Assembly (NCBI GenBank): GCA_044867525.1
Contig: JBIOVB010000016.1
Location: forward strand, 23,685-87,684
From: Acidimicrobiia bacterium
GTDB taxonomy: Bacteria > Actinomycetota > Acidimicrobiia > Spongiisociales > ZC4RG35
DNA length: 64,000 nucleotides
Direction of reading: 5' to 3'
Each line of letters opens with the position of its first letter. Within the stretch, counting starts at the first letter, position 1. Positions 43-64,000 of this stretch are shown here, in pieces. The notes under the pieces were generated by a model. That model was not told the DNA's origin and did not search any database. It was given only the letters and a program-made list of their open reading frames with translations. Position numbers and translations under genes: made by a program.

Positions 43-3003
43 GTGACTGGTGGCGAGATCCGGATAGACCCTGGATCCTGGGATATCTGGGTGGCAAGCC
101 CCGCCGGCCCACAGCTGATCGTGGCGGGGCCGGGGACCGGCAAGACCGAGTTCCTCGTGGGAAGGGTGGCGCACATCGTCAATGCCGGGCTCGCCCGTCG
201 AGACGAGGTTTCGTTCCTCACGTTCTCCCGCCGTTCGGCTGCCGATATCAAGCGTCGGGTCACCGAGGCCATCGGCGGCTCGGGTGCGCCCATCGACTCC
301 TCTACTTTCCACTCCCTGGCTCTCCGGTTGCTCGAGTCGGCCTCCGGAGTGCGGCCGGTGCCGCTCACGCCTCCGGAGCAGGTTCGAGTGGTCGCCGGGC
401 TGCTTGCCTCGGAGGACCCCGGAGCGTGGCCGGTCGCCTATCGCGGGATCCTGACAACCCGTGTCTTCGCCGGCGAGATCGCCGACTTCCTCACCCGTTG
501 CTCGGAGCGGCTCCTCTCCCCCGACGAGCTTGCCGAAAGAGCCGCCAGCCGCGCTGATTGGAAGGGGATCCCTGGCCTCTTCTCCCGGTATCGGCGGGCA
601 TTGGAGGAGCTGGCGAGGACCGACTACGGCACCCTCCTGGTGTCGGCCGTCGAGCTCCTGCGAACACCCGCCGGCTTCGAGCTCGCCGACGGGTTTCGCT
701 ATGTGGTCGTCGACGAATACCAGGACACCACCCCGGCACAAGCCGAGATGGCGCGGCTTCTCGCAGCGCCACATGGGAACCTCACTGTCGCCGGCGACCC
801 CTATCAGTCGATCTATTCGTTCCGCGGCGCTGAGCTGCGCAACATCGCCGCATTCACCGACGAGCACCCACAGGCGACCCGGATCATCCTCGACGGGAGC
901 ATGCGGGTGCCCCGGGAGATCCTGGAGTCGGCTCTTCGAGTTGTCTCCTCTGGCGAGCTGCCGGGCTCGGCCGGCCCGGTCCGGCCTGCCGCGCATCGGG
1001 GCCGGGTTGAGGCCTACACATTCGACCAGGAGACCTCCGAAGCCGACTGGATAGCTCGTGAGGTCGAGCAAATGATCAGTGTCGAGGGGGTGGGGCCCGC
1101 ATCGATCGCGGTGTTGGTTCGCTCCAAGCGCGAGCTGCTCAGGGAATTGGCCCGTGCCCTCGACCGGCGGGGCATTGCCCACGACCAACCAGACAGCCGC
1201 CTTGTCGATCATCCCGCGGTTCGCGTCTTCCACGACCTGGCAATCGTGGCCGGTCTCGGATCCGGAAGTCGCCCGACGACACCTGGCGAGATGGCGGACG
1301 TCGATCGGGCCGTGCGCCGCATCCTCCTCGGTCCGCTCTTCTCGGTTGGGTTGGGGAAGGAGCGAGACCTGTTGAGAGTGCGGAGGAGGACCAGGGCATC
1401 TTGGCCGGATGTGATCGGCGCCGGGCTCCCAGACGAGGCGAGCCTCGCCGGGCTGATCGGCGATCCATCATGGACCGACTCTGTTCCGGCAGTCGATGGG
1501 CTCTGGGAGGCATGGAGTCGACTCGACGCTTTCGAGCGGCTCGTTGCCGACCCCGCCAGGAGCGAATGGCGGAGCGCGATCACGTCCTTCGCCCAGGTGC
1601 TGGGGCGCCAGGCCGACCGCGACCGCACCGTGACCCTGCTCGGTTTCTTCGAAATGGCCGACGAGGAGGGATACGAAGTCGATCCCCTCATCCCGCACCG
1701 CCCGGACGCCCAGCAAGTCGCCTTGACCACCCTCCATCAATCCAAGGGCCTCGAGTTCGATGCGGTGTTCATTGCCAACGCGGTGGAAGGCGTCTTCCCC
1801 GATCTCCGGCGAAGCCGCCGCATGCTGCGACCGGAACTGTTGTCGCCAGAGCGGATTAGCGACGGGACCGCCCAACACCTGTTCCAGGTGCAGGAAGAGA
1901 TGCGGCTCGCCTACACCGCCATGACCAGGGCACGCCTGAGGGTGGTGTGGACGGCCACCAACGCAGGCGCCGATCAGGGGGAACACCGCCCATCTCGCTT
2001 CCTGGTGGCAGCCGCCGGCGCCGCCTCGATCTCCGAGATCGGGCCCCCGGTCGAGGTAGATCGGCCACCGGTGACCGTGATGGAGGCCGAAGTGGCGATG
2101 AGACGCGCAGCTCTCGACCCGACACGTCCATCGCCGGAGCGTCTCGCCGCCACCCGGGTTCTGGCCTCGCCTCCCGGTGACTGGTGGGAGCCATCGGCGT
2201 TTGCCGGGGTGCCCGCCCCCGGGCCGGATCGGCCCATCCTTGGGGCAAAGGTCACCCTGTCCCCCAGTCAGGCCGATATGTACTCGACCTGTCCCCGGAG
2301 ATACGCGCTCGAGCGGCGGCTCCGGCTGGGCGACGCCGACTCCCCGCACGCCCAATTCGGCACCCTGGTGCACTCCGCTTTGGAACGCGCCGAGAAGGAG
2401 GTGGTGGGAAGCGGGCAAGCCCATGCCGAGTTGGACGCAGTGCTCGAGCACCTGGAGACCGTGTGGTCCCAGGATGCCGACTTTGGTACGCCCGAACTGG
2501 ATGCCGCATGGCTTCGCCACGCCCGGGCCCTGGCAACGAGGCTATATGCGAGCTGGCCGAGCCCGGAGGGAGTCCCCATCGACCTCGAGATGAAGATCGA
2601 GGCGACCATCGACGACGTGCCGTGGACCGGGGTGATCGACCGGCTGGAGCGAACACCCGACGGGCTCAAGGTCGTGGACTACAAGACCTCGAAGCGCCCA
2701 CCGTCGTTCGCCGATGCCGCCGGATCGATCCAGCTCGCCTTCTATGCGACCGCCGTCGCCAGGAGCACGGGCGAGCCCGTCATCGCGGCCGAGATGTGGT
2801 TCCCCCGGGCCGAGTCGAAGTCGGTCACCACGCGTTCGCTGGACATGAGCAGCCTGGTGACACTCGAAGAGGAGATGGCTCGAGTGACATCGGCGATCAA
2901 AGAAGAGAAATGGGAGCCAACCATCGGTGAGGGCTGCAAGTACTGCAGCTTTCGGCTGTCGTGCCCCGCCTGGCCCGAGGGAAAAGGGGCCTACCTCCCA
3001 TGA
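43..3003 (+). CDS. adnA: AdnA-like helicase-nuclease subunit (UvrD/Rep motor plus C-terminal RecB-type nuclease with a 4-Cys motif)
   Basis: 986-aa ORF from GTG 43. It has UvrD-family motifs (GPGTGKTEF Walker A, VVDEYQDT, QSIYSFRGA). The C-terminal nuclease region has four Cys (YSTCPRRY ... CKYCSFRLSC), as in AddB/AdnA Fe-S nuclease domains. Its stop overlaps the next start (ATGA). Confidence 0.8.
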   Translation: MTGGEIRIDPGSWDIWVASPAGPQLIVAGPGTGKTEFLVGRVAHIVNAGLARRDEVSFLTFSRRSAADIKRRVTEAIGGSGAPIDSSTFHSLALRLLESASGVRPVPLTPPEQVRVVAGLLASEDPGAWPVAYRGILTTRVFAGEIADFLTRCSERLLSPDELAERAASRADWKGIPGLFSRYRRALEELARTDYGTLLVSAVELLRTPAGFELADGFRYVVVDEYQDTTPAQAEMARLLAAPHGNLTVAGDPYQSIYSFRGAELRNIAAFTDEHPQATRIILDGSMRVPREILESALRVVSSGELPGSAGPVRPAAHRGRVEAYTFDQETSEADWIAREVEQMISVEGVGPASIAVLVRSKRELLRELARALDRRGIAHDQPDSRLVDHPAVRVFHDLAIVAGLGSGSRPTTPGEMADVDRAVRRILLGPLFSVGLGKERDLLRVRRRTRASWPDVIGAGLPDEASLAGLIGDPSWTDSVPAVDGLWEAWSRLDAFERLVADPARSEWRSAITSFAQVLGRQADRDRTVTLLGFFEMADEEGYEVDPLIPHRPDAQQVALTTLHQSKGLEFDAVFIANAVEGVFPDLRRSRRMLRPELLSPERISDGTAQHLFQVQEEMRLAYTAMTRARLRVVWTATNAGADQGEHRPSRFLVAAAGAASISEIGPPVEVDRPPVTVMEAEVAMRRAALDPTRPSPERLAATRVLASPPGDWWEPSAFAGVPAPGPDRPILGAKVTLSPSQADMYSTCPRRYALERRLRLGDADSPHAQFGTLVHSALERAEKEVVGSGQAHAELDAVLEHLETVWSQDADFGTPELDAAWLRHARALATRLYASWPSPEGVPIDLEMKIEATIDDVPWTGVIDRLERTPDGLKVVDYKTSKRPPSFADAAGSIQLAFYATAVARSTGEPVIAAEMWFPRAESKSVTTRSLDMSSLVTLEEEMARVTSAIKEEKWEPTIGEGCKYCSFRLSCPAWPEGKGAYLP

Positions 3004-6000
3004 GCCTGGTACCGAGCCCCGAACAACAGGCGATCCTCGACCTGGGGCTGGGAAATATCCGAATCAGGGCCGGCGCAGGAACCGGCAAGACCACCACCGC
3101 GGCCATGATCATCTCCAACCTGATCGATCGACGCGGGGTCGAGCCCGAGCAGGTCCTGGGCATCACTTTCACCAATAAGGCCGCCGCCGAGCTCGCCGAC
3201 CGGGTGAGGTCGACGATCGAGGGACAGGTGGACGAGGGCCGCCAGGTCGAGGTGCACACCTATCACGGCTTTGCTGCCCAAATCCTGTCGGAGTTCGGTG
3301 CCCTGGCCGGGGTCGACACCGGTGTCAAGATCATCACCCCTACGTTCTCACGACAACTGCTCTCGGAGACCTTCGATCGCACCGACTACCAGGCGATCGA
3401 CATCACCAATCGGCAGAACCTCGACAAGATCAGGGCCCTCGGCGACCGATTGGGGGATCATCTCCTGGAGCCCCGGGATTTGCTCGCGCCTGACTTGCCG
3501 GACGACGACGTGTGGCTGAAACGCCAGGAGATGCTGGAGACTCTGAGGACATACGCAGCCGAGAAACGACGCCTTGGTGTCGTGGACTACAGCGACCTGG
3601 TCACGCTCTCCACCCGTGTGATGCGGGACAACCCGGGGCTGGCGTCGGAGGTCAGGGACCGCTACCGGGTAGTGCTCCTCGACGAGTACCAGGACACCAA
3701 TCCGGCGCAACGGGTGCTCCTGGCAACGGTTTTCGGAGATGGGTTCCCGGTGATTGCAGTCGGCGATGAGGACCAGACGATCTACGAGTGGAGGGGAGCG
3801 TCTTCCGAGAACTTCGAGCTGTTCTCCCACCATTTCCCGGCGCCCCCGGGGAAGAAGGTCATCGAACGAGGGCTCACCCTCAACCGGAGGTCGTCACAAG
3901 TCATCCTCGACGTGGCCAACGAGATCCGGCGCCGGGGCAACCCGGGCGCCCAGGAGCTGCGATCGGACGAACAGCAGCGCGTCGGAGAGGTGATCACCTA
4001 TTGGGCCGAGGACGCGATCGCCGAAGCCGACTGGATCGCGACCCAGTTGGAGGATCGACACGCCGATGGAATTCCATGGGCGGAGATGGCTGTCCTCTTC
4101 CGCAAGAACAAAGACTTCGCCGTCGTACTCGATGCCCTCTCCCGCCACGAGATCCCCGTCGAGGTGGCCAACCTTGGTGGTCTTCTCTCGGTGCCCGAAG
4201 TCGCAGAGCTCCGGGCTTGGATGACCATCATCGAGCGACCGGAGGACTCAGGGTCACTGGTTCAGGTGCTCTTTGGCAGCCGGTATCGACTCGGGCTCGC
4301 CGACATCGCCCCCCTAACCCGATGGGTGACAACCGCTGTCACCGACCTCGATGACGAAGAGGTGGCGCCGGTGAGTCTTCTCGAGGCCATTGAGAGCCTC
4401 GATCAGATCGACGGGATCAGGGCCGAGTCGAGGAAGGCGTTGACCCATTTCCTGACCACCTACCGGGAGGTGCTGGTGGAGAGTCAGGGAATGAGCCTGG
4501 TCGAGGTGTGCCGCCTCATCCTCGACCGTGCCCGCGCCTGGCAGGACATCGATGCCTTGCCTCCCACGGCCCGGCTGACAGCGAAGCTGAACCTGCACCG
4601 CCTGCTCGACCTCGCCGAGGACTGGAGCCCGCTCTCGGGTCGGCCGTCGCTGACCGCCTTCCTCGACTACCTAGACGTGATGGAGGACGAGCCTGCCGAG
4701 GAGCTCGACTCGGCGCACCTCTCGGGCGAGGACGCGGTGACCTTGGTCACCATCCATCGAGCCAAGGGGCTGGAGTGGGATGTCGTTGCCGTGCCCGCAG
4801 TGGTGGATCAGAACTTCCCCAGTCGGTCCCATCAATTCCCCGACCCTGTCCGGTTCCCCGAGCATCTCCCCGTCGGGCACCGCATCGACACCGCCTTTGC
4901 CGCCTTGCCCGACGACGAGAAAGCCCGGACCGCCTATCTCCGGCAGCGGCACGAGTTGCAGGAGTGGCGCACGGCCTACGTCGCTGCAACCCGGGCGCGA
5001 TCGACCCTGATGGTCACCGGCAGCTATTGGTACGGGCTCCCCGAGCCCACCATGTCTGCGAAGAAGCCGTCCGCTCTGTTCGAGCTAGTCGAACGACACC
5101 CTGCGACCCGGGTCGCCGGCCACGAAAGCGAGCCCCAGAGACCGGCCCTTCTCCGCTGGGCCGCAGAGGCGGTGACGCCCGACCCGCTCTTCGCCTCAGG
5201 GTGGGCCGAAGCCATGCGCTCGGCGATCGCCGACCCGACCACCCTCGATGCCGTGGCCAATTCCCTGGGCGTCCAGGCTCGTTATCAGGAGCTGGTGGAT
5301 TCGTTCACCGGCACCCTGTTCGAGGTCTTGGCCGGTGACCGGCAGTTCCCGCCTCCCGCCCCGGTGAAACAGGTGTCTGTCACCGGGCTGGTGACCTATG
5401 CCCAGTGCCCGAAGCGGTATTACTGGTCCGTAGTCGACGGACTGCCCCGGCGACGCAATCCGGCTGCGGTCGCCGGGACCGAGGTCCATCGCCGCATCGA
5501 GCTCCATCAAAGGGGTCAGGTCCCCTTCGAGGTCGTCGAAGCCGATTTCTACGATGTGCCCGACGAGGGTTCGGGACCCGGGGCCTTCAAGTCGTTCCTG
5601 GCGTCCCGGTTCGCAGAGCGAAACGCGACTCTGGTCGAGGCGCCTTTCGAGATCCAGATGGACAACGGCTATTTGGTGAGAGGCCGGATGGACGCGGTGT
5701 ACATCGACGACGGCGCCTGGGAGATAGTGGACTTCAAGAGCGGAAAGCCCGCCGACGAGATCGGCCGAATCGTCCAGTTGCAGGCCTATGCCATCGCAGC
5801 CACCGATGCCGACCTCGGGCACCCCAAGCCCTCCTCCCTCGACGTCACCTTCGCCTATCTCGGCGATGGCGTCGCCGAACAGAGGTTCCGCGCCGACGGT
5901 CCCTGGATGGAGGCAGCTCGGGCCGACATTGCCGGGCTCACCGCAGGGATCGAGGGTGAAGACTTCCAAGAGGTCCCCGGCACCTGGTGCAATTCCTGTG

Positions 6001-6047
6001 ATTTCCTCCGGTTCTGCGGGCCCGGCAAGGAATGGCTGGAGCAGTGA
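3000..6047 (+). CDS. adnB: AdnB-like helicase-nuclease subunit (UvrD/Rep motor plus RecB-type nuclease with a 4-Cys motif)
   Basis: Start moved from the track position 2961 to ATG 3000, which forms an ATGA overlap with the adnA stop. Motifs: GAGTGKTTT Walker A, LLDEYQDTNP, EDQTIYEWRGA. The C-terminus has YAQCPKRY ... WCNSCDFLRFC. Confidence 0.8.
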   Translation: MSLVPSPEQQAILDLGLGNIRIRAGAGTGKTTTAAMIISNLIDRRGVEPEQVLGITFTNKAAAELADRVRSTIEGQVDEGRQVEVHTYHGFAAQILSEFGALAGVDTGVKIITPTFSRQLLSETFDRTDYQAIDITNRQNLDKIRALGDRLGDHLLEPRDLLAPDLPDDDVWLKRQEMLETLRTYAAEKRRLGVVDYSDLVTLSTRVMRDNPGLASEVRDRYRVVLLDEYQDTNPAQRVLLATVFGDGFPVIAVGDEDQTIYEWRGASSENFELFSHHFPAPPGKKVIERGLTLNRRSSQVILDVANEIRRRGNPGAQELRSDEQQRVGEVITYWAEDAIAEADWIATQLEDRHADGIPWAEMAVLFRKNKDFAVVLDALSRHEIPVEVANLGGLLSVPEVAELRAWMTIIERPEDSGSLVQVLFGSRYRLGLADIAPLTRWVTTAVTDLDDEEVAPVSLLEAIESLDQIDGIRAESRKALTHFLTTYREVLVESQGMSLVEVCRLILDRARAWQDIDALPPTARLTAKLNLHRLLDLAEDWSPLSGRPSLTAFLDYLDVMEDEPAEELDSAHLSGEDAVTLVTIHRAKGLEWDVVAVPAVVDQNFPSRSHQFPDPVRFPEHLPVGHRIDTAFAALPDDEKARTAYLRQRHELQEWRTAYVAATRARSTLMVTGSYWYGLPEPTMSAKKPSALFELVERHPATRVAGHESEPQRPALLRWAAEAVTPDPLFASGWAEAMRSAIADPTTLDAVANSLGVQARYQELVDSFTGTLFEVLAGDRQFPPPAPVKQVSVTGLVTYAQCPKRYYWSVVDGLPRRRNPAAVAGTEVHRRIELHQRGQVPFEVVEADFYDVPDEGSGPGAFKSFLASRFAERNATLVEAPFEIQMDNGYLVRGRMDAVYIDDGAWEIVDFKSGKPADEIGRIVQLQAYAIAATDADLGHPKPSSLDVTFAYLGDGVAEQRFRADGPWMEAARADIAGLTAGIEGEDFQEVPGTWCNSCDFLRFCGPGKEWLEQ

Positions 6048-30773: not shown

Positions 30774-30779
30774 AGGCTA
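30774..30779 (-). promoter_or_regulatory. -10-like hexamer TAGCCT, 8 nt upstream of the 2-hydroxyacid dehydrogenase GTG 30765
   Basis: The plus strand reads AGGCTA. Confidence 0.4.
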
Positions 30780-30827
30780 GATGTCCGGCTCGACAACACC
30801 TGGAAAGGTGTCCCGCCGACCCGCCGA

Positions 30828-56709: not shown

Positions 56710-57612
56710 TCAGGCTGCGGCCGAGCGCAGCGCCCGGATCACCAGGTCGCGGTCGCCGAGGCGGCGCCTCAGCTCGCGCTCCAGGCCCCCTATCGGATAG
56801 AGGTTCTGCGGGGCCCGGGGATCCTTGTGGCGCGCCGAGGCATAGCGAGGGAGACTCGCCGACACCACGTGGGCAACACGCGCGGCATCGGCCACGGTCA
56901 TGTCCGCCTTCACCTCGCAACGGACGAGCCCGCCCGCCGGCCCAGAGCCATTGGCCAGCCTCAGATACCACGAGAACCGGCTCCATGAGGTCGTCGTGAG
57001 GAAGAGCGGAGTCCGATGACCCACGGGCAGCGTCCCCAGGGTGGCACGGAGATCATCGGGGAGATACTGCACGTGCTGGGTCTTCACGTAGCCCACGGCT
57101 CCCTCGACGTGCCTGCTGTGCGACAGCGGCCCATCGACCACGATCAGGGCGGCATCTGCATGATCGGAGGCGATCTCACCCTCGAGATCGCCCATTCTCT
57201 CCTGAATCCCGAGCCAGAGCTCCTCTGGGGTCGATCCCTTGGTGCTCATCACCTCGTAGCGGCCCACCTTGGTGTCGACCTCATCGGCCGGGACACCGGT
57301 GAAGATCCCCCTTCTCACCCTCGCTGCCACCACCGTGGCACCGCCGTTGCAGCGCACCGCCCCCGCGGCGAAGGTGGCCGCCAGGCCGAACCCGGGAAAG
57401 AGGTCATCCCGATCGATCCAGAGGTTGGCATCGACCCGGCGCACACCATCGACGAAGAGAATGTCGCTCGCCGGCTCGCACTCGGGGAGCAGCGGCCGCC
57501 AATTCTCCGGTGTGACCTCGACCGAGGGGTCGACCTTGTCGGTGGAGTCTGCAAGGTCGGCGTCCGAAGGCGATCCGTAGTCGGGATCCCAGGCTTCGAC
57601 GGTGAATCTCAT
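56710..57612 (-). CDS. NurA-like nuclease (putative)
   Basis: 300 aa. ILFVDGVRR near the N-terminus and LIVVDGPLSH mid-protein resemble the conserved acidic DG motifs of NurA. The gene has a 4-nt overlap with the rad50/sbcC stop and occupies the last position of a herA-mre11-rad50 cassette. Confidence 0.5.
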   Translation of the reverse strand: MRFTVEAWDPDYGSPSDADLADSTDKVDPSVEVTPENWRPLLPECEPASDILFVDGVRRVDANLWIDRDDLFPGFGLAATFAAGAVRCNGGATVVAARVRRGIFTGVPADEVDTKVGRYEVMSTKGSTPEELWLGIQERMGDLEGEIASDHADAALIVVDGPLSHSRHVEGAVGYVKTQHVQYLPDDLRATLGTLPVGHRTPLFLTTTSWSRFSWYLRLANGSGPAGGLVRCEVKADMTVADAARVAHVVSASLPRYASARHKDPRAPQNLYPIGGLERELRRRLGDRDLVIRALRSAAA

Positions 57613-59939
57613 ACGGCCACCTTCTCGATCGACGATGTCTCCGGCCCCTTGATGACTTCGAATCGGACTGGTATCCGCTCCGCCAGCTCTTGAACGTGAG
57701 TAACCAGGCCGACGGTCCGGCCCTGACCGGCGAGCTCGTCGAGCACCGAGGCCACGACGTCGATCGACTCCTGGTCGAGTGAGCCAAATCCCTCATCCAA
57801 CAACACCGACTCGAGCCGTGAAGAAGTCCCGGTCAGCTCGGCGAGCTGCTCCGCCATGGACAACGACAGAGACAGCGCCACCAGGAAGGTCTCCCCGCCC
57901 GAGAGCCCGCGCGTGGTCCTGGTCAGGTCGGCGTTGCGATGATCGACGACCTCGAACTGGCTGCGGGTAGCAATCAGGGAATAAGCGCCTCCGGTCAGCT
58001 CGTGAAGCAGCTTGTTGGCCCCGTCCACCAGGGTCTCCATTGCTTCTTCGAGAAGCCAGGCCTCGAAATTGCTGGACCTCAGGTGGTTCCCGAGAGAAGA
58101 GGCGACACGCGTCAGGCCCCGCTCCGCCTCGATCTGGCCACCCAACTCGTCGGCTTCGGCAATCGACTTCTCCAGCTCTTGGATCTCGGCTCGGCGCCGC
58201 TCCTCTGCAAGGGCCAGGTTGGCCTCGGGCGACCCGTTCGGTTCGACACCGAGGCCTTCGAGCCACCCCCGTGTCTCGTCGAGGGCCCGCGCGGCCTCCT
58301 TCTCGGCGCCCGCAACCTGCTGATCGAGCCGGTGGAGGTCGGCCTTGCGATCATCGACGCGTCCCTCTCGCCAGCCCACGAACGAGAGCCAGGCCGCGAC
58401 CGGGTCTTCCCCGGGTATCGGCGGCTTCTCGCCGGCCACGAGATCGCGAGCTGCCAGAAGGGTCTCGAAGAGCCCGGCCGCCCGCCGCGAGAGCTCGTCC
58501 ACTCTGGCCTTTGCCTCGTCGGCTTGATGCTGCGCTTCTGCGATCCTGAGCTCGGTCTCTGCTCTGGCTTCGAGCAGTTTCAGTAGCGAAGCGATCGACG
58601 ACGCCAGCTCTTCCGAGGGCGGCGCCCCCGCGAGCAACCCTTCGAGATCCGCTGCCTGCTGGTCCATCTGCTTGGCAACGCCCTCCGCCTCTTTGAGGCC
58701 ATCCCGGGCATCGGCGACCAGGGAATCGAGTTCGGCGACCTCTCCGACCAGACGTTCCATCGATTGACCGGGCCCGCCACTCGGGCTCGGGATTTCCTCG
58801 ATCGCCGCAAGGCACACCGGGCACACCTCCCCAACGACCAGGCCCTGGCGGACCGTGTGGGCCGCATGCTCCAACCTGAGGGAGCTCAGCTCTGCGACTT
58901 TCCGGTCCCGGGAGGCTGTCGTCACGGCCATGTGATCGCTCAGCGCCTTTAGGTCGAGAGCAGCTCGATCGACACGGAGTGAGTCCAGCCGATCGCGATT
59001 TGCGGCCCATCCCTCGAGCTTCGAAAGGGGAGTGAAGCCCTTGATTGCCGCATCAGCCGCATCGAGCTCGGCAACGAAGCCGGCCAGGAGTTGGGTCACT
59101 ACCTCGAGGCCTTCCTTCGCGTCGAGTCGGTCTTTCTCGATCGTGCCCAGATCCTCCGGTGCCGCTATCGACTCCAGGAGGCTCAGCGCATCGCCGGCTC
59201 CGGCGCGGGCCGCGCTCGCATCGAGGACGGACGCCTGGAGACTCTGCAGCTTCTCAACCCGCGAAGGCAGCTCCTCACGCGCCACGAGGATCGCCTCCAA
59301 ACCGGCCCGGGCCGCCTCGAGCTGCTCGGGGGTGGGCACCTCCAACTTGGCCAGGCTCTCCTCCATGGCCTGGGCCCGCCCCTCCGAGGTCTTGGCCCTG
59401 GCGTTTGCCAGCTGCATCACCTTCTCGAACAGCCCGACCTCGAGCAGCGCGCGAAGCAGCGCCTGGCGCTCTCTTGGCTTATCGGTGAGGAAGTCGGCGA
59501 AAGCCCCCTGCGGCAGGACTACCGCCTTGGTGAACTGGTCATATGTGAGGCCGAGGAGCTCGGTCACCCGGTCGGTGACCTCGTCGGAGCCTCGGGCCAG
59601 CACTTCGCCGCCTTTCCGCTCCAGGCTCGCCTCCGTGGTCGTGGCCCCTGAGCCTCTGCGCTCCACGAGGCGTGCGGCCACGAAACGCTCCTCTTCGACC
59701 GTGAAATCGAAGGAAACCCGGGCCCGATCGGCGCGGGCAGAGATGACAGGTGCCACGGAGCGGCGATCGTCGAGCCGGGGAATCGTGCCGTAGAGGGCGA
59801 AGACCATACCGTCGATCACGCTCGACTTGCCGGCGCCCGTTGGCCCGGACAAGACGAACAGGTCTGCTTCGGTGAAGTCGACCTCGGTGCGCTGCCGGTA
59901 GGCGAGGAACCCCTCCATCACCAGGAACTGCGGCCTCAC
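57609..59939 (-). CDS. sbcC: SbcC/Rad50-family SMC-like ATPase
   Basis: Walker A LSGPTGAGKSS, a long coiled coil with a CPVC zinc hook, signature LSGGETFLVALSL, Walker B VLLDEGFGSLD. Confidence 0.9.
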   Translation of the reverse strand: MRPQFLVMEGFLAYRQRTEVDFTEADLFVLSGPTGAGKSSVIDGMVFALYGTIPRLDDRRSVAPVISARADRARVSFDFTVEEERFVAARLVERRGSGATTTEASLERKGGEVLARGSDEVTDRVTELLGLTYDQFTKAVVLPQGAFADFLTDKPRERQALLRALLEVGLFEKVMQLANARAKTSEGRAQAMEESLAKLEVPTPEQLEAARAGLEAILVAREELPSRVEKLQSLQASVLDASAARAGAGDALSLLESIAAPEDLGTIEKDRLDAKEGLEVVTQLLAGFVAELDAADAAIKGFTPLSKLEGWAANRDRLDSLRVDRAALDLKALSDHMAVTTASRDRKVAELSSLRLEHAAHTVRQGLVVGEVCPVCLAAIEEIPSPSGGPGQSMERLVGEVAELDSLVADARDGLKEAEGVAKQMDQQAADLEGLLAGAPPSEELASSIASLLKLLEARAETELRIAEAQHQADEAKARVDELSRRAAGLFETLLAARDLVAGEKPPIPGEDPVAAWLSFVGWREGRVDDRKADLHRLDQQVAGAEKEAARALDETRGWLEGLGVEPNGSPEANLALAEERRRAEIQELEKSIAEADELGGQIEAERGLTRVASSLGNHLRSSNFEAWLLEEAMETLVDGANKLLHELTGGAYSLIATRSQFEVVDHRNADLTRTTRGLSGGETFLVALSLSLSMAEQLAELTGTSSRLESVLLDEGFGSLDQESIDVVASVLDELAGQGRTVGLVTHVQELAERIPVRFEVIKGPETSSIEKVAV

Positions 59940-61066
59940 GTTTGTATCGCCTCCTGTTCGAGCTCGCGAAACAGGTCGAGCACCGCCGGGTCATCCACGC
60001 CTTTGGCGGACAGGTAGGTGGCGAACAGGTCGACCGGGGATCGTCCCGCCCGGCTCACCCTCTCCCGGCGCTCCACTTCGTCTGAGCGTTCGATCACCAC
60101 GTCGACGGCGCCGGGGATCGCGGCACGAACTTCGTCGTTGAGCCCGGAGCGGGCCTTCTCGTCGAGGATGACCTTGACATAGGCGTCGGTGACGTCTCCC
60201 GCCATGGCTATCACCTGCTCCAACGTGCCGGTCAACTGCACGAGCCTGGTCCCGCTGACAATGGGGATCTCCTCGACCTTTGCCGGCTTGCCCGCCTCGG
60301 CTTCCACGAGGAGCACTCCTTTCCGGTCGCCGACCTCGCCAAAGTCGAGCGGCATCGGCGACCCGCTGTACCAGACCGGGGCCGGAGCAGCCACCTTCTG
60401 CTGCCTGTGGAGATGGCCGAGCGCCACATAGCTCAAGTGCCCCGGGAAAGCCTGCGGGGGGATGTCGTAACCCATGATGTGGGAGTCCCGTTCGCCCCCA
60501 CCCGTTGTCGCCCCATAGACGAAGGCGTGGCCGATCACGACGTTGACGGTGTCGACGCCCATGTCCCCGGTGAGCGCCTCGATCACCTTTCTCATCCGGT
60601 GCTCGTAGGTCTGCACGTGTTGATCGGGATCGAGTCCCATGATCTGCTCCGCCTTGATGATCCCTCGTTGCGATACGAAGGGCAGAAATGCCGCCCGAAG
60701 GCCGAGTTCTTGGAGGTGGGCCACCCCACCATCACCTGGTGGCAAGGGCCGGGACACGACCCGGATCCGTCCCAGGTCGAGCAGGGGTTTGATGGCATCG
60801 AGACGGGCCGCGTTGTCATGGTTGCCGCCGACCACCAGCACAGGGCCGACTTCGGCCAGGTCGAGCAGGGCCCGATAGACCACGGCCTCATCCTCCGGCG
60901 ATGGAGAGGAGACGTCGAACAGATCACCTGCAACCAGGGTGGCGTCCACGAGTCGATCGCGGGCTATACCGGCGATCTCAACCAGCACCGCACGGTGCTC
61001 CTCCACGCGGGATCGCCCCCGGATCCTCCTCCCCACGTGCCAATCGGACGTATGGAGCAGCCTCAT
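59936..61066 (-). CDS. sbcD: SbcD/Mre11-family nuclease
   Basis: Phosphoesterase motifs MRLLHTSDWHVG, GDLFD, GNHD and GHLH. It has a 4-nt overlap with sbcC. Confidence 0.9.
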   Translation of the reverse strand: MRLLHTSDWHVGRRIRGRSRVEEHRAVLVEIAGIARDRLVDATLVAGDLFDVSSPSPEDEAVVYRALLDLAEVGPVLVVGGNHDNAARLDAIKPLLDLGRIRVVSRPLPPGDGGVAHLQELGLRAAFLPFVSQRGIIKAEQIMGLDPDQHVQTYEHRMRKVIEALTGDMGVDTVNVVIGHAFVYGATTGGGERDSHIMGYDIPPQAFPGHLSYVALGHLHRQQKVAAPAPVWYSGSPMPLDFGEVGDRKGVLLVEAEAGKPAKVEEIPIVSGTRLVQLTGTLEQVIAMAGDVTDAYVKVILDEKARSGLNDEVRAAIPGAVDVVIERSDEVERRERVSRAGRSPVDLFATYLSAKGVDDPAVLDLFRELEQEAIQT

Positions 61067-61128
61067 CGGAGCCAGAGCTCTTTCATTCCTCCGATCGTAG
61101 GACCGGGGTGGGACAGATCCTGGTAGTC

Positions 61129-62802
61129 CTAGAGGTCCTGGAAGGGGTCCTCCGGCGAGTCGGCCCGGGCGGGAAGCGCCCCGGCCTCAGAAGCTCGAGT
61201 GGCCCAGGCGGGAAATGGGAACTCGAGGACCAAGGGCACAGGGAGCTCCGGCTGGGCGAGGAGCATCGTGCCCGGTTTGAGGATGGTTGCCCGCTGGCGT
61301 TGCGCAGCAGGAAGGAAGCCGTACTCCTCGCGTGACGCCTCGGCAGAGTCCAGTCGACCCACGACCCTGATCGATGAGTTGGCGATGATGCGCCGCTCCA
61401 CTTCGGAAGCGGTCTGCTGCGCGCCGATCAGGATCACCCCCAACGACCGGCCCCGCTCCGCCACGTCGAGGAGCACCTCCTTGATCGGGCTGAATCCCTC
61501 CCTGGGGGCGTACTTGTTCAACTCGTCGAGGACCAGGAACAGCAGCTCTTCGGACTGCCCGGCATTCTCCTTGTCCTCGAAGGCTCGCCTCACCGTCACC
61601 CCGACCACGAACCGCTTCGCACGATCGTTCAGGTTGTGGAGGTCGACCACTGTCACCTGGTGGCCCTGGACATCGATGTTGTGCCGCGCCGGATTGGCGA
61701 TGTCCCCCCGGATCAGGCGCTCGACGTGGCGCACGGATCCCTGAAGGCGGCGGACGAATGCGTTGACCGTGCCCTGCCCGATGTGAGGCCCGGCCCATTC
61801 GAAGTTCGAGTCATCCTGTTGCACCTTCCTCGTAACCAGGTCGACCAGCTCGCGAAAGGTGCGCACCGTTTCGCCCTCGATCCTCACCGAGCCTCCATCG
61901 GCATCCTCGGCATGCCTCAGCTGGGCCATGACGTTGTAGACGACCATCGTGTACTGAGCCCGCTCGTCCTCGGCGTCGGCGAAGAGGAACACCATCAGGT
62001 CCTCGTGGCAGAACTCGGCGAGCGTCCAGAAGAACGATGTGATGTCGGGACGGGAGCTGACCTCGGCCACGGCCTTTTCGGATCCGACCCGGGGCGGGGC
62101 GAACAGCCCCACAGAGTCGAACGGCCCGGCGGGTAGGCCGAGATCCTTGTATCGGCGCCGGGCATCGTCGTCGAGGCTGCGATTGGGGCGGTCGATGTGG
62201 AGCAGGTCCTCGCCCTTGACGTTGAAGATCAGCGCCTTGGTGTTGACCGCCGCCGCAGCCAGGACGCCGGAGGTGAACAGCGAATGGAGTAGGAAGGTGG
62301 CGTAGCTGGTCTTGGTGGCCACACCCGACACTCCAGAGATGTTGACGTGGGCACCACGTTGTCCGTTGAGGAACTCGAAATTGGCAAAGAGCGGCTCTCC
62401 GTTGCGGGACGCACCAACCGGGAACTTGCGATCCATGCGGTCGAAGAACAGGGCCTGCTCCCGCTCCTCGCCCTGAGCTCTCCGCACCGGTTGCCCGGGC
62501 CGCGGGGGCACGAAGATCTCCGGCTCCACCCGTGTCGCGGTGACCTGCGCCGCCTCGACGACCTCGGCGGGCAGCACCCCGTCCTCGATGAGGAACACGT
62601 CGGAGTCGAATCGAGCTCCCTCGTGGCGCGCCCTCACCTGGCTCACCGTCCCGAAGATCTTCACCAGCTCACCGGATGGGAGCACTCGCTCCAACGCGAC
62701 CACGTCGTCGAGCTCCAGGTATTCACCGTCGGCGACGCCCACCCAGAACTCGAGCGGCGTGGCGTCGACGGTCCCGATCACCCGACCGACCATCTCCTCC
62801 AT
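61129..62802 (-). CDS. HerA-like (FtsK-HerA superfamily, DUF87-type) ATPase
   Basis: Start reset to ATG 62802; the upstream 125 codons of the track ORF are Arg/Gly-rich. The protein has an N-terminal HAS-barrel-like region (GRVIGTVDATPLEFWV), a P-loop-like GVSGVATKTS, a Walker B LLFLVLDELNKYAP, and GAQQTASEV. Confidence 0.7.
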   Translation of the reverse strand: MEEMVGRVIGTVDATPLEFWVGVADGEYLELDDVVALERVLPSGELVKIFGTVSQVRARHEGARFDSDVFLIEDGVLPAEVVEAAQVTATRVEPEIFVPPRPGQPVRRAQGEEREQALFFDRMDRKFPVGASRNGEPLFANFEFLNGQRGAHVNISGVSGVATKTSYATFLLHSLFTSGVLAAAAVNTKALIFNVKGEDLLHIDRPNRSLDDDARRRYKDLGLPAGPFDSVGLFAPPRVGSEKAVAEVSSRPDITSFFWTLAEFCHEDLMVFLFADAEDERAQYTMVVYNVMAQLRHAEDADGGSVRIEGETVRTFRELVDLVTRKVQQDDSNFEWAGPHIGQGTVNAFVRRLQGSVRHVERLIRGDIANPARHNIDVQGHQVTVVDLHNLNDRAKRFVVGVTVRRAFEDKENAGQSEELLFLVLDELNKYAPREGFSPIKEVLLDVAERGRSLGVILIGAQQTASEVERRIIANSSIRVVGRLDSAEASREEYGFLPAAQRQRATILKPGTMLLAQPELPVPLVLEFPFPAWATRASEAGALPARADSPEDPFQDL

Positions 62803-62808
62803 GTGCCG

Positions 62809-62814
62809 AGAGTA
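62809..62814 (-). promoter_or_regulatory. -10-like hexamer TACTCT, 6 nt upstream of the herA-like ATG 62802
   Basis: The plus strand reads AGAGTA. Confidence 0.4.
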
Positions 62815-62843
62815 GACCTCGCCGGCGACAGGAAACGGTCTCG

Positions 62844-62849: not shown

Positions 62850-62856
62850 GACCGCG

Positions 62857-64000
62857 GTGAGCCTGGTGGTGTTCCCTTTCAAGGACGAGGATCCGGCAAC
62901 GGTCGGCGCCAACCTGAAGACCGCAGCGGCCCACCATGGAGTCACCGAGGTTTGGGCCGTGGCCGCGACCGACAGCTCCCAAGCCGCCCGGGTGACGGCA
63001 ATCACCGAGGAGATCGCTGCCGGGTCGGGCAAGGCAGTTCGCGTGCTGGCCCAGGAGAGAATCGGCCGCTTCCGGCCCGGCAAGGGTGACGCCATGAACA
63101 CGGCCATCTCCGCCGCCGCCAAACAGGGTTGGGAGCGGGCGCATTTCTTCGATTCCGACATAACCAACTTCGACCACTCATGGATCGATGGGGCCGAGGC
63201 CGCGGCCGACCAGGGATATGGCGTCGTGAGGCACCGATTCCCACGTGCCGCCACAGATGCGATGATCACCTGGATGGTGACCAGGCCCAGCCTGGCCCTT
63301 CTCTTTCCCGGCACATTCCTGCCACGCCTCGATCAGCCCTTGGGAGGCGAGCTGCTCCTCACCGGCCCCGCCCTCGAACTCCTCGTTCGCTCCGATCTGG
63401 TGCGGGATCGCTCGGACTGGGGGATCGACACCGTCATCACATACGCAACCGCCGTCATGGGGCTCGGCCTCTACGAGCATCACGTCGCCGACGGGAAGAG
63501 GCACAGCCTCTACGGCTCGCTGGAGGAGTTGCGGCCGATGCTCATCGAGTGCCTGGCGGCGGCGGTCTCCTTGCGCGGACTGCCCGGGCCCGATGCCGGG
63601 GCACGTCACGGCAGCGATCCCACTCAGCCGGTCCCGCCCGACCTGCTCACGACCGTTGCCTACGACTTCGAGGAGACCACGCTCATCCTCTCCACGCCGC
63701 TCTCGGGAGGAGAGACGGAGCTGATGGCAAGGATGCCCGACGCGGGACGCATCCAGCGCCTGGCCGACCCGGTCCGCCCGTTGCCCGAGCTCATGGACGC
63801 CTCGACCTGGCTCGACACGTTGCGCTTCCTCCACGATGGCTTCGAGATCGGCGAGTCGGCTTGGGAGGCGCTGGCATTCCGGCTGTGGCTGCACCGTGTG
63901 GTCTCCTACACCATGGAATGGGTGCCCAAGGGCTACCAGGCCGCGATCGGGCACCTGGAGGACACGATCCGTGACTACGAGGCCGCCGCAGACCACCATT
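62857..64000 (+). CDS. Mannosylglycerate synthase-like glycosyltransferase (GT78-type), 3' end outside the window
   Basis: This frame is not in the ORF track because it has no stop in the window. The plus frame from GTG 62857 is open for 381 codons. It reads VSLVVFPFKDEDP...RPGKGDAMNTA...HFFDSDITNF...VRHRFPRAATDAMITWMVTRP...QPLGGELLL...RSDWGIDT...LYGSLEELRPMLIEC. From memory this is collinear with Rhodothermus marinus mannosylglycerate synthase. Confidence 0.7.
   Translation, partial: MSLVVFPFKDEDPATVGANLKTAAAHHGVTEVWAVAATDSSQAARVTAITEEIAAGSGKAVRVLAQERIGRFRPGKGDAMNTAISAAAKQGWERAHFFDSDITNFDHSWIDGAEAAADQGYGVVRHRFPRAATDAMITWMVTRPSLALLFPGTFLPRLDQPLGGELLLTGPALELLVRSDLVRDRSDWGIDTVITYATAVMGLGLYEHHVADGKRHSLYGSLEELRPMLIECLAAAVSLRGLPGPDAGARHGSDPTQPVPPDLLTTVAYDFEETTLILSTPLSGGETELMARMPDAGRIQRLADPVRPLPELMDASTWLDTLRFLHDGFEIGESAWEALAFRLWLHRVVSYTMEWVPKGYQAAIGHLEDTIRDYEAAADHH

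Follow-up and report, generated by a model that had tools for sequence, protein, structure and literature searches.

The archaeal four-gene operon herA-mre11-rad50-nurA is a textbook case. In Sulfolobus/Saccharolobus and Pyrococcus its genes are co-transcribed as one unit, are induced by ultraviolet (UV) light and act jointly in the processing of DNA ends (PMC2288612, PMC4351679), and archaeal Mre11 binds HerA physically (PMC2288612). Here we describe a cassette of herA, sbcD, sbcC and nurA on the minus strand (56710-62802) of a 64-kb stretch of DNA (hereafter the window) from a GC-rich Acidimicrobiia bacterium. The cassette has the same four protein families in the same order as the archaeal operon. 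It is rather likely to be a chromosomal DNA-damage-responsive module that processes double-strand breaks and is made of four bacterial-type proteins.

In bacteria, NurA-HerA of Deinococcus radiodurans (7F6D; PMC9960219) and NurA-HepA of Thermus thermophilus (PMC5448004) are described as products of two-gene nurA-herA loci, and Deinococcus-Thermus lacks RecBCD/AddAB (PMC9960219). A one-sentence genomic remark in the Thermus report places SbcD and SbcC homologues directly downstream of hepA in Oceanithermus profundus, and its authors inferred an architecture and function like those of archaeal double-strand break repair (PMC5448004). For D. radiodurans, any link with SbcCD “remained to be uncovered” (PMC4663267). 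E. coli SbcCD (6S6V) is encoded by the two-gene operon sbcDC. The window cassette differed from these in that herA came first and nurA last, with sbcD and sbcC embedded between them, and in that its host also has AdnAB.

Bacterial NurA-HerA structure and biochemistry (from D. radiodurans), the archaeal four-gene operon and the herA-sbcDC adjacency in Oceanithermus are already known. New here are the findings that the cassette is so widespread and so constant in its order and that its parts are of bacterial type, and the prediction of PafBC-type control from two promoters. An earlier sequence-based note on this DNA (the original prediction) knew of no functional description of a four-gene bacterial cassette; likewise, no functional study was found in the literature searched, and earlier remarks on herA-sbcCD linkage may exist. 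Most of the evidence that ties Mre11-Rad50 functionally to HerA-NurA comes from hyperthermophilic archaea, in which the genes are essential (as in Sulfolobus) and genetics is hard, and the resection role is now doubted by structural work.

The herA-sbcD-sbcC-nurA cassette

The genes of the cassette, in the order of transcription, were as follows.
61129-62802, minus strand: herA, 557 aa from MEEMVGR
59936-61066, minus strand: sbcD, 376 aa
57609-59939, minus strand: sbcC, 776 aa
56710-57612, minus strand: nurA, 300 aa

As read from the sequence, these were four co-directional open reading frames (ORFs). herA and sbcD were separated by a gap of 62 nt. The sbcD stop codon overlapped the GTG start of sbcC by 4 nt (GTGA), and the sbcC stop overlapped the ATG of nurA by 4 nt (ATGA), through which nurA is translationally coupled to sbcC. 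The longest possible herA ORF extended to 63177. An upstream start in this frame was rejected because the extension runs antisense to a divergent plus-strand gene starting at ~62851 and encoding mannosylglycerate synthase, so the 557-aa start was taken as the right one. GC content was uniform over the window (0.63-0.68).

The original prediction had described four tight co-directional minus-strand genes with a 62-nt gap and two 4-nt overlaps, in the archaeal gene order. All of its coordinates were reproduced, the genes were adjacent, co-directional and in that order, and the motifs it had listed (LVLDELNKY, MRLLHTSDWHVG, GNHD, GPTGAGKSS, CPVC, LSGGETF, ILFVDGVRR and LIVVDGPLSH) were all found in the translations. 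Its naming of the four proteins also held, as detailed below: the SbcD/Mre11 and SbcC/Rad50 calls agreed with Pfam, NCBIfam and Protein Data Bank (PDB) matches, the 557-aa ATPase was a genuine, full-length homologue of D. radiodurans HerA (drHerA) rather than an unrelated DUF87/FtsK protein, and the 300-aa protein was NurA by profile and by a structural search with a rough model.

SbcD contained the Pfam domains Metallophos and SbcD_C, and the phosphoesterase motifs DWH, GDLFD, GNHD, GH and GHLH were present in its translation. It scored 158.9 bits on the NCBIfam model TIGR00619 sbcD (cutoff 77.65), and no archaeal Mre11 model gave it more than 44 bits. Its nearest solved structures were E. 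coli SbcD (6s6v_A, expect value (E) = 6.8e-35), then Thermotoga maritima Mre11 (3e-16) and Pyrococcus furiosus Mre11 (1.2e-9). SbcD is thus assigned as an Mre11-family phosphoesterase nuclease of the bacterial SbcD type.

SbcC matched Pfam AAA_23 (residues 6-197) and SbcC_Walker_B (residues 667-734) and contained a Walker A motif GPTGAGKSS, a CPVC zinc hook, a signature LSGGETF and a Walker B motif LLDEGF. On TIGR00618 sbcC it scored 231.7 bits, under the full-length cutoff; with archaeal Rad50 models its score did not exceed 73 bits. At 776 aa the protein is shorter than the E. coli SbcC chain (1048 aa), which fits a score below the cutoff of full-length sbcC models. E. coli SbcC (6s6v_C, E = 1.3e-41) was the nearest solved structure, followed by Thermotoga and then by archaeal Rad50. 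E. coli SbcCD was thus the nearest solved relative of both proteins, and the phosphoesterase motifs, the ATP-binding cassette (ABC) motifs and the CxxC hook were conserved. SbcC is assigned as a Rad50/SMC-family ABC ATPase of bacterial type with a CPVC zinc hook.

A phmmer search against PDB sequences matched HerA to drHerA (7f6d_B) with E = 5.4e-145 over residues 3-547 in two blocks. Pfam gave a weak HAS-barrel match (residues 5-60); otherwise Pfam and NCBIfam barely recognised the protein. Residue correspondences were counted by hand on the phmmer alignment to 7f6d_B. HerA K164/T165, D426/E427, R434 and R491 stood opposite drHerA K175/T176 (Walker A), D487/E488 (Walker B), R495 and R552 (translocation), ATPase/translocation residues that are required according to mutagenesis (PMC9960219). 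K164, T165, D426 and E427 were invariant in 30 family members. These alignments identify HerA as a putative FtsK/HerA-type translocase ATPase of double-stranded DNA, of the bacterial (drHerA) type.

NurA matched D. radiodurans NurA (drNurA; 7f6d_H) with E = 2.1e-20 and T. maritima TM1739 (1zup) with 3.2e-8 in phmmer. A profile built from 25 cassette NurAs matched 7f6d_H with E = 2.8e-49 over positions 33-303, which is nearly full length, and 1zup with 1.2e-18. The Pfam model NurA (PF09376) recognised the 300-aa protein with 21.2 bits, narrowly over the cutoff of 21, and matched 15 of the 25 cassette NurAs individually. W8, D55, E144, D160, K177 and R266 were invariant in all 25. On the phmmer alignment, W8, D55, K177 and R266 corresponded to drNurA W8, D53, K201 and R309, each of which impairs or abolishes nuclease action when mutated (PMC9960219). 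An AlphaFold2 model made from a 13-sequence, low-diversity alignment was of low confidence (mean predicted local distance difference test score 55.7, predicted template modelling (TM) score 0.58). Foldseek with this model gave 7f6d_G (E = 1.9e-10, TM 0.56) and 1zup as top matches, then Piwi and RNase H folds. The identification rests on the sequence profiles, to which the rough model adds weak support, and they point to a bacterial-type NurA, a predicted RNase H-fold 5′-3′ nuclease. All of the drHerA and drNurA residues that mutagenesis has shown to be essential were kept in the window proteins (PMC9960219). The same mechanism would be expected, a hexameric translocase feeding a dimeric RNase H-fold nuclease, with a HerA ring and a NurA dimer in the 6:2 ratio of D. 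radiodurans.

No archaeal HerA or NurA structure was detected at E ≤ 1 by the window HerA or by the 25-sequence NurA profile, in line with a report that NurA-HerA of bacteria and of archaea are <20% identical (PMC9960219). The cassette thus combines an archaeal gene order with wholly bacterial-type proteins that are very distant from the archaeal ones.

Conservation of the cassette among bacteria

The HerA family is of modest size; at E ≤ 1e-30 it comprised 530 clusters when grouped at 50% identity. One genome per species was scanned with a HerA alignment and 580 loci were confirmed; the locus analyses given here concern the best 80 of the 580, in which HerA was at least 62% identical to that of the window. 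Six-frame ORFs were searched for partner genes, first with the window's own four proteins and afterwards with hidden Markov models built from the matches. Sequence of 5.5 kb or more followed herA in 61 loci, and 60 of these carried herA-sbcD-sbcC-nurA on one strand. Such constancy of genes, order and strand is more than chance. Median junctions were ~2 nt (sbcD-sbcC), ~6 nt (sbcC-nurA) and 64 nt (herA-sbcD). The herA-sbcD interval held 0.3-4.4 kb of unrelated genes in 10 loci; these inserts were mutually unrelated, and a conserved fifth gene was rejected. nurA overlapped or adjoined sbcC, not herA, in nearly all loci, even where unrelated genes lay between herA and sbcD. This attachment to sbcC of a nuclease that HerA requires as its partner is the strongest comparative argument for a functional link of SbcCD with HerA-NurA.

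Most of the 80 loci came from Acidimicrobiia. Others came from Nitriliruptorales, a dozen Micromonospora (cultured, RefSeq), Bacteroidota (Saprospiraceae, Cyclobacteriaceae), Gemmatimonadota/Longimicrobiales, Chloroflexota (Dehalococcoidia), Acidobacteriota and Gammaproteobacteria, and several of the surveyed loci were on chromosome-level assemblies. The Bacteroidota loci had GC contents of 42-49% and were therefore not mis-binned actinobacterial contigs. These results indicated that the cassette is widespread in bacteria and no rarity of this genome, and that the window copy represents a common bacterial form of an already known type of system.

HerA was highly conserved, its identity across the loci never falling below 58%. 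SbcC evolved fastest of the four proteins (mean pairwise identity 38%, minimum 30%). The pairwise-identity matrices of the four proteins correlated with r = 0.80-0.92, which points to a shared history. In Acidimicrobiia relatives HerA was 72-89% identical to that of the window and the locus was syntenic, with the mannosylglycerate synthase gene kept upstream and the housekeeping neighbours of the window (an EamA transporter gene, gpsA, ychF and gcvP) downstream. The cassette is thus a stable chromosomal feature in Acidimicrobiia.

Scanning 2.9 million viral contigs with the HerA alignment found no relatives, and six of 72,556 plasmid records contained one. A 451-kb linear Streptomyces plasmid carried the same cassette; there the NCBI Prokaryotic Genome Annotation Pipeline (PGAP) had labelled HerA as “ATP-binding protein” and NurA as “hypothetical protein”. 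Such annotations of cassette genes can be replaced by HerA and NurA. The NurAs closest to that of the window came from metagenome-assembled genomes (MAGs) of Acidimicrobiia; for some, the NCBI product name is already “DNA double-strand break repair nuclease NurA”. On a cyanobacterial (Sphaerospermopsis) plasmid the order was rearranged to nurA-herA-sbcD-sbcC, and the four-gene linkage was kept despite the rearrangement.

Some loci departed from the common arrangement or context. In L015 (7895-17880), herA stood alone with no partners within 10 kb. L015, L008, L012 and L060, all from Acidimicrobiia, had herA and the promoter motif described below, without sbcD, sbcC or nurA in the available 2-10 kb downstream; the partners may be located elsewhere or may have been lost. 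The Streptomyces copy (L081, 1-8319; Streptomyces sp. BB1-1-1 plasmid NZ_CP134205.1) was flanked divergently by TIGR02680, TIGR02678 and DUF2397 genes, which we take to be Wadjet-like, together with an ImmA/IrrE metallopeptidase gene. Its cassette was followed by a “helicase associated domain” gene, a context unlike the chromosomal one.

Predicted promoters of the cassette and of adnAB

In mycobacteria, the in vivo PafBC (RecA-NDp) consensus is tGTCgg(N10)tA(N3)T, in which PafB reads the GTC triplet and tA(N3)T serves as the -10 element (PMC8635444). The mycobacterial PafBC regulon includes AdnAB and RecBCD, and its motif is also present in other Actinobacteria (PMC8223512). Related features of the window were as follows.
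62809..62830, minus strand: PafBC/RecA-NDp-type motif before herA, TGTCGCCGGCGAGGTCTACTCT, matching the consensus
61094..61115, minus strand: PafBC/RecA-NDp-type motif in the herA-sbcD spacer, TGTCCCACCCCGGTCCTACGAT, with exact consensus spacing
61063..61086, minus strand: mini-ORF MKELWLR*, 7 codons, starting 7 nt after the -10-like hexamer, its TGA overlapping the sbcD ATG
30774-30795, minus strand: third motif match, ahead of the D-2-hydroxyacid dehydrogenase-like part of a long minus-strand frame

The pattern TGTC-N12-TANNNT had three matches in 64 kb, against 0.87 expected, and two of the three lay on the cassette strand at both predicted transcription starts. The match at 30774-30795 is possibly due to chance or marks a further regulon member. 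On the herA side, the -10-like TACTCT ended 6 nt before the herA ATG, and leaderless herA transcription is therefore predicted. The mini-ORF before sbcD is probably a leaderless entry point that is translationally coupled to sbcD. Four related loci (L001-L004) had mini-ORFs equal in length and different in sequence, with the same ATGA/GTGA overlap; in L005 and L010 the promoter motif stood directly before sbcD.

Similar motifs were present in the relatives. In herA-sbcD spacers of close relatives, aligned by eye, the block TGTCnnn...TACGATCG was conserved, and the sbcD-side motif of L004 was a perfect TGTCGG-N10-TACGAT. Of 77 related loci, 35 had GTC-N12-TANNNT no more than 100 nt from the herA start; among the 32 loci whose spacer measured 35 nt or more, 16 had it upstream of sbcD, insert-bearing loci included. 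The background was 0.048 per kb per strand, which makes the enrichment ~100-fold. Persistence of the sbcD motif behind herA inserts fits two transcription units, and two are predicted, herA alone and a translationally coupled sbcD-sbcC-nurA, in contrast to the single unit of the archaeal operon. The likeness to the mycobacterial PafBC regulon lies in the bipartite motif, the invariant GTC and the -10 hexamer directly upstream; herA, nurA and this kind of sbcDC are not described there as members (PMC8635444, PMC8223512). These damage-type motifs suggest that the cassette would be induced by DNA damage. A sigma-70 promoter scan of 56-64 kb gave no sites. In one Microthrixaceae MAG (L022, 9900-10000), a ~20-nt tandem repeat, CAACACGCCCCCGGG..., filled the region upstream of herA in place of the motif.

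The AdnAB that the original prediction had placed at 43-6047 was also found, as two genes (43-3003 and 2961-6047) each encoding a UvrD motor and a PD-(D/E)XK nuclease domain. The best solved match of AdnB was chain B of M. smegmatis AdnAB (E = 1e-71). DNA upstream of window position 1 was taken from a public contig (L083) encoding an AdnA identical to that of the window. There a PafBC-type motif, TGTCACACCCGGTGCTTAGCGT, lay at L083:273-295 and was followed after 7 nt by a leaderless ORF of 47 codons (303-446), which precedes adnA and had no Pfam match. A second TACGAT hexamer stood 6 nt before the adnA GTG (L083:463, equal to window position 43).

Proposed function and alternative explanations

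In the proposed mechanism, SbcCD would recognise and clip broken, hairpin-capped or protein-blocked ends. A HerA hexamer would then thread the duplex and push the DNA into a NurA dimer, which would separate the strands and degrade the 5′ strand or both, leaving a substrate for RecA-dependent repair. That SbcCD and HerA-NurA share the work in this way is inferred by analogy with archaeal Mre11-Rad50/HerA-NurA work (e.g. PMC8708640) and D. radiodurans biochemistry (PMC9960219). Each unit (herA and sbcD-sbcC-nurA) would start at a PafBC/RecA-NDp-type promoter. Because each unit and adnAB are preceded by the same type of motif, the cassette may be a second, co-regulated end-processing machine parallel to AdnAB. 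The original prediction had suggested an archaeal-style, possibly imported resection module working alongside AdnAB; resection beside AdnAB is still the best reading, and the archaeal-style, imported part is not supported.

Several observations weigh against a damage-induced repair function. D. radiodurans and T. thermophilus mutants that lack nurA or herA are only mildly sensitive, or are even more resistant to UV and mitomycin C (PMC9960219), so a repair phenotype is not guaranteed. A 2026 study of Thermococcus kodakarensis HerA-NurA found that both strands were degraded, questioned the resection role and suggested destruction of foreign DNA or an antiviral role (PMC12977600). The window motifs have CC or GC at the weakly conserved mycobacterial gg; overall, the positions after GTC read CC, GC or AC. 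Neither the Micromonospora loci nor the plasmid copy from Streptomyces had the motif upstream of herA, and regulation would therefore be lineage-specific. No pafBC or WYL-domain gene was found among the 20 window ORFs scanned.

A broader claim is that HerA-SbcD-SbcC-NurA forms one physically coupled break-processing machine, transferred as a whole between six or more phyla and wired to PafBC alongside AdnAB in Acidimicrobiia and some other Actinomycetota. We advance this tentatively, as a little short of probable. Conservation of the four-part arrangement in bacteria is independent comparative evidence for functional coupling, and the idea could be tested in the cultured Micromonospora and Streptomyces hosts. 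If true, it would offer a mesophilic, cultured bacterial model in which the genes are possibly non-essential, and could settle whether HerA-NurA with Mre11-Rad50 acts in resection or in DNA destruction, which the 2026 archaeal study has made a matter of debate again. Essentiality of the window cassette is unlikely given AdnAB, unlike that of the archaeal genes in Sulfolobus. The predicted promoters lead to the hypothesis that the cassette and AdnAB belong to an actinobacterial DNA-damage regulon.

Alternatively, the cassette could be a defence module that destroys foreign linear phage or plasmid DNA, like RecBCD or HerA-based anti-phage systems, with SbcCD and HerA-NurA degrading unprotected ends. 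HerA ATPases do partner effectors in SIR2-HerA and DUF4297-HerA, and the antiviral role suggested in T. kodakarensis (PMC12977600) would agree with this. Weak PADLOC matches were obtained for HerA (mad8, 3e-10; HerA models, 1e-6) and SbcC (mad3, 6e-25; LmuB, 2e-22), but they covered generic ATPase cores and were tiny beside the drHerA match (E = 5e-145), and neither NurA nor SbcD had a PADLOC match. The cassette contained no SIR2, DUF4297 or LmuA-type gene, and membership of SIR2-HerA, DUF4297-HerA, Lamassu or MADS was rejected, the matches being partial and to ATPase cores with no effector partner. The TIGR02680, TIGR02678, DUF2397 and ImmA/IrrE peptidase genes adjoining the Streptomyces plasmid copy, and the 62-68% identity to the window HerA across phyla, which suggests horizontal spread, would favour defence. 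The stable, syntenic housekeeping context in Acidimicrobiia is unlike a variable defence island, however, the viral contigs held no relatives, and the DNA-damage-type motifs are common to adnAB. A defence role, which the original prediction had offered as its alternative, thus found little support and is considered unlikely.

Break processing by the cassette as a whole was also compared with the possibility that herA and sbcD-sbcC-nurA are neighbouring but independent units, with SbcCD cleaving hairpins and palindromes and HerA-NurA working separately. Two separate promoter motifs and the tolerance of the herA-sbcD junction for inserts in 10 loci would fit this, as would the stand-alone nurA-herA pair of Deinococcus/Thermus, described for Thermus without adjacent sbcCD (PMC5448004). 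It is nevertheless improbable, since nurA was parted from herA and joined to sbcC in nearly all loci, the rearranged nurA-herA-sbcD-sbcC order kept all four genes together, the distance matrices of the four proteins were correlated, and archaeal Mre11 binds HerA (PMC2288612).

Transfer of the herA-mre11-rad50-nurA operon as a block from archaea, which the original prediction had raised as a possibility, would account for an order that matches the one written for Saccharolobus (PMC10470591) and would suit reports that call bacterial herA-nurA probably archaeal in origin (PMC5448004, PMC12977600), but it is very improbable and recent import is not supported, as SbcD and SbcC were of bacterial type by profile scores (far higher on bacterial models) and by nearest solved structures (E. 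coli SbcCD), HerA and NurA were of Deinococcus/Thermotoga type and <20% identity separates bacterial from archaeal forms (PMC9960219), with no archaeal structure detected, GC was uniform, and the cassette is wide and stable in bacteria.

Neighbouring gene

One further gene of the window adjoined the cassette.
62851-64000 (running off the window end), plus strand: mannosylglycerate synthase, Pfam MGS_GT (6.9e-85) and MGS_C

Mannosylglycerate synthase is a compatible-solute enzyme; its gene was the divergent neighbour of herA and was kept in this position in several Acidimicrobiia relatives.

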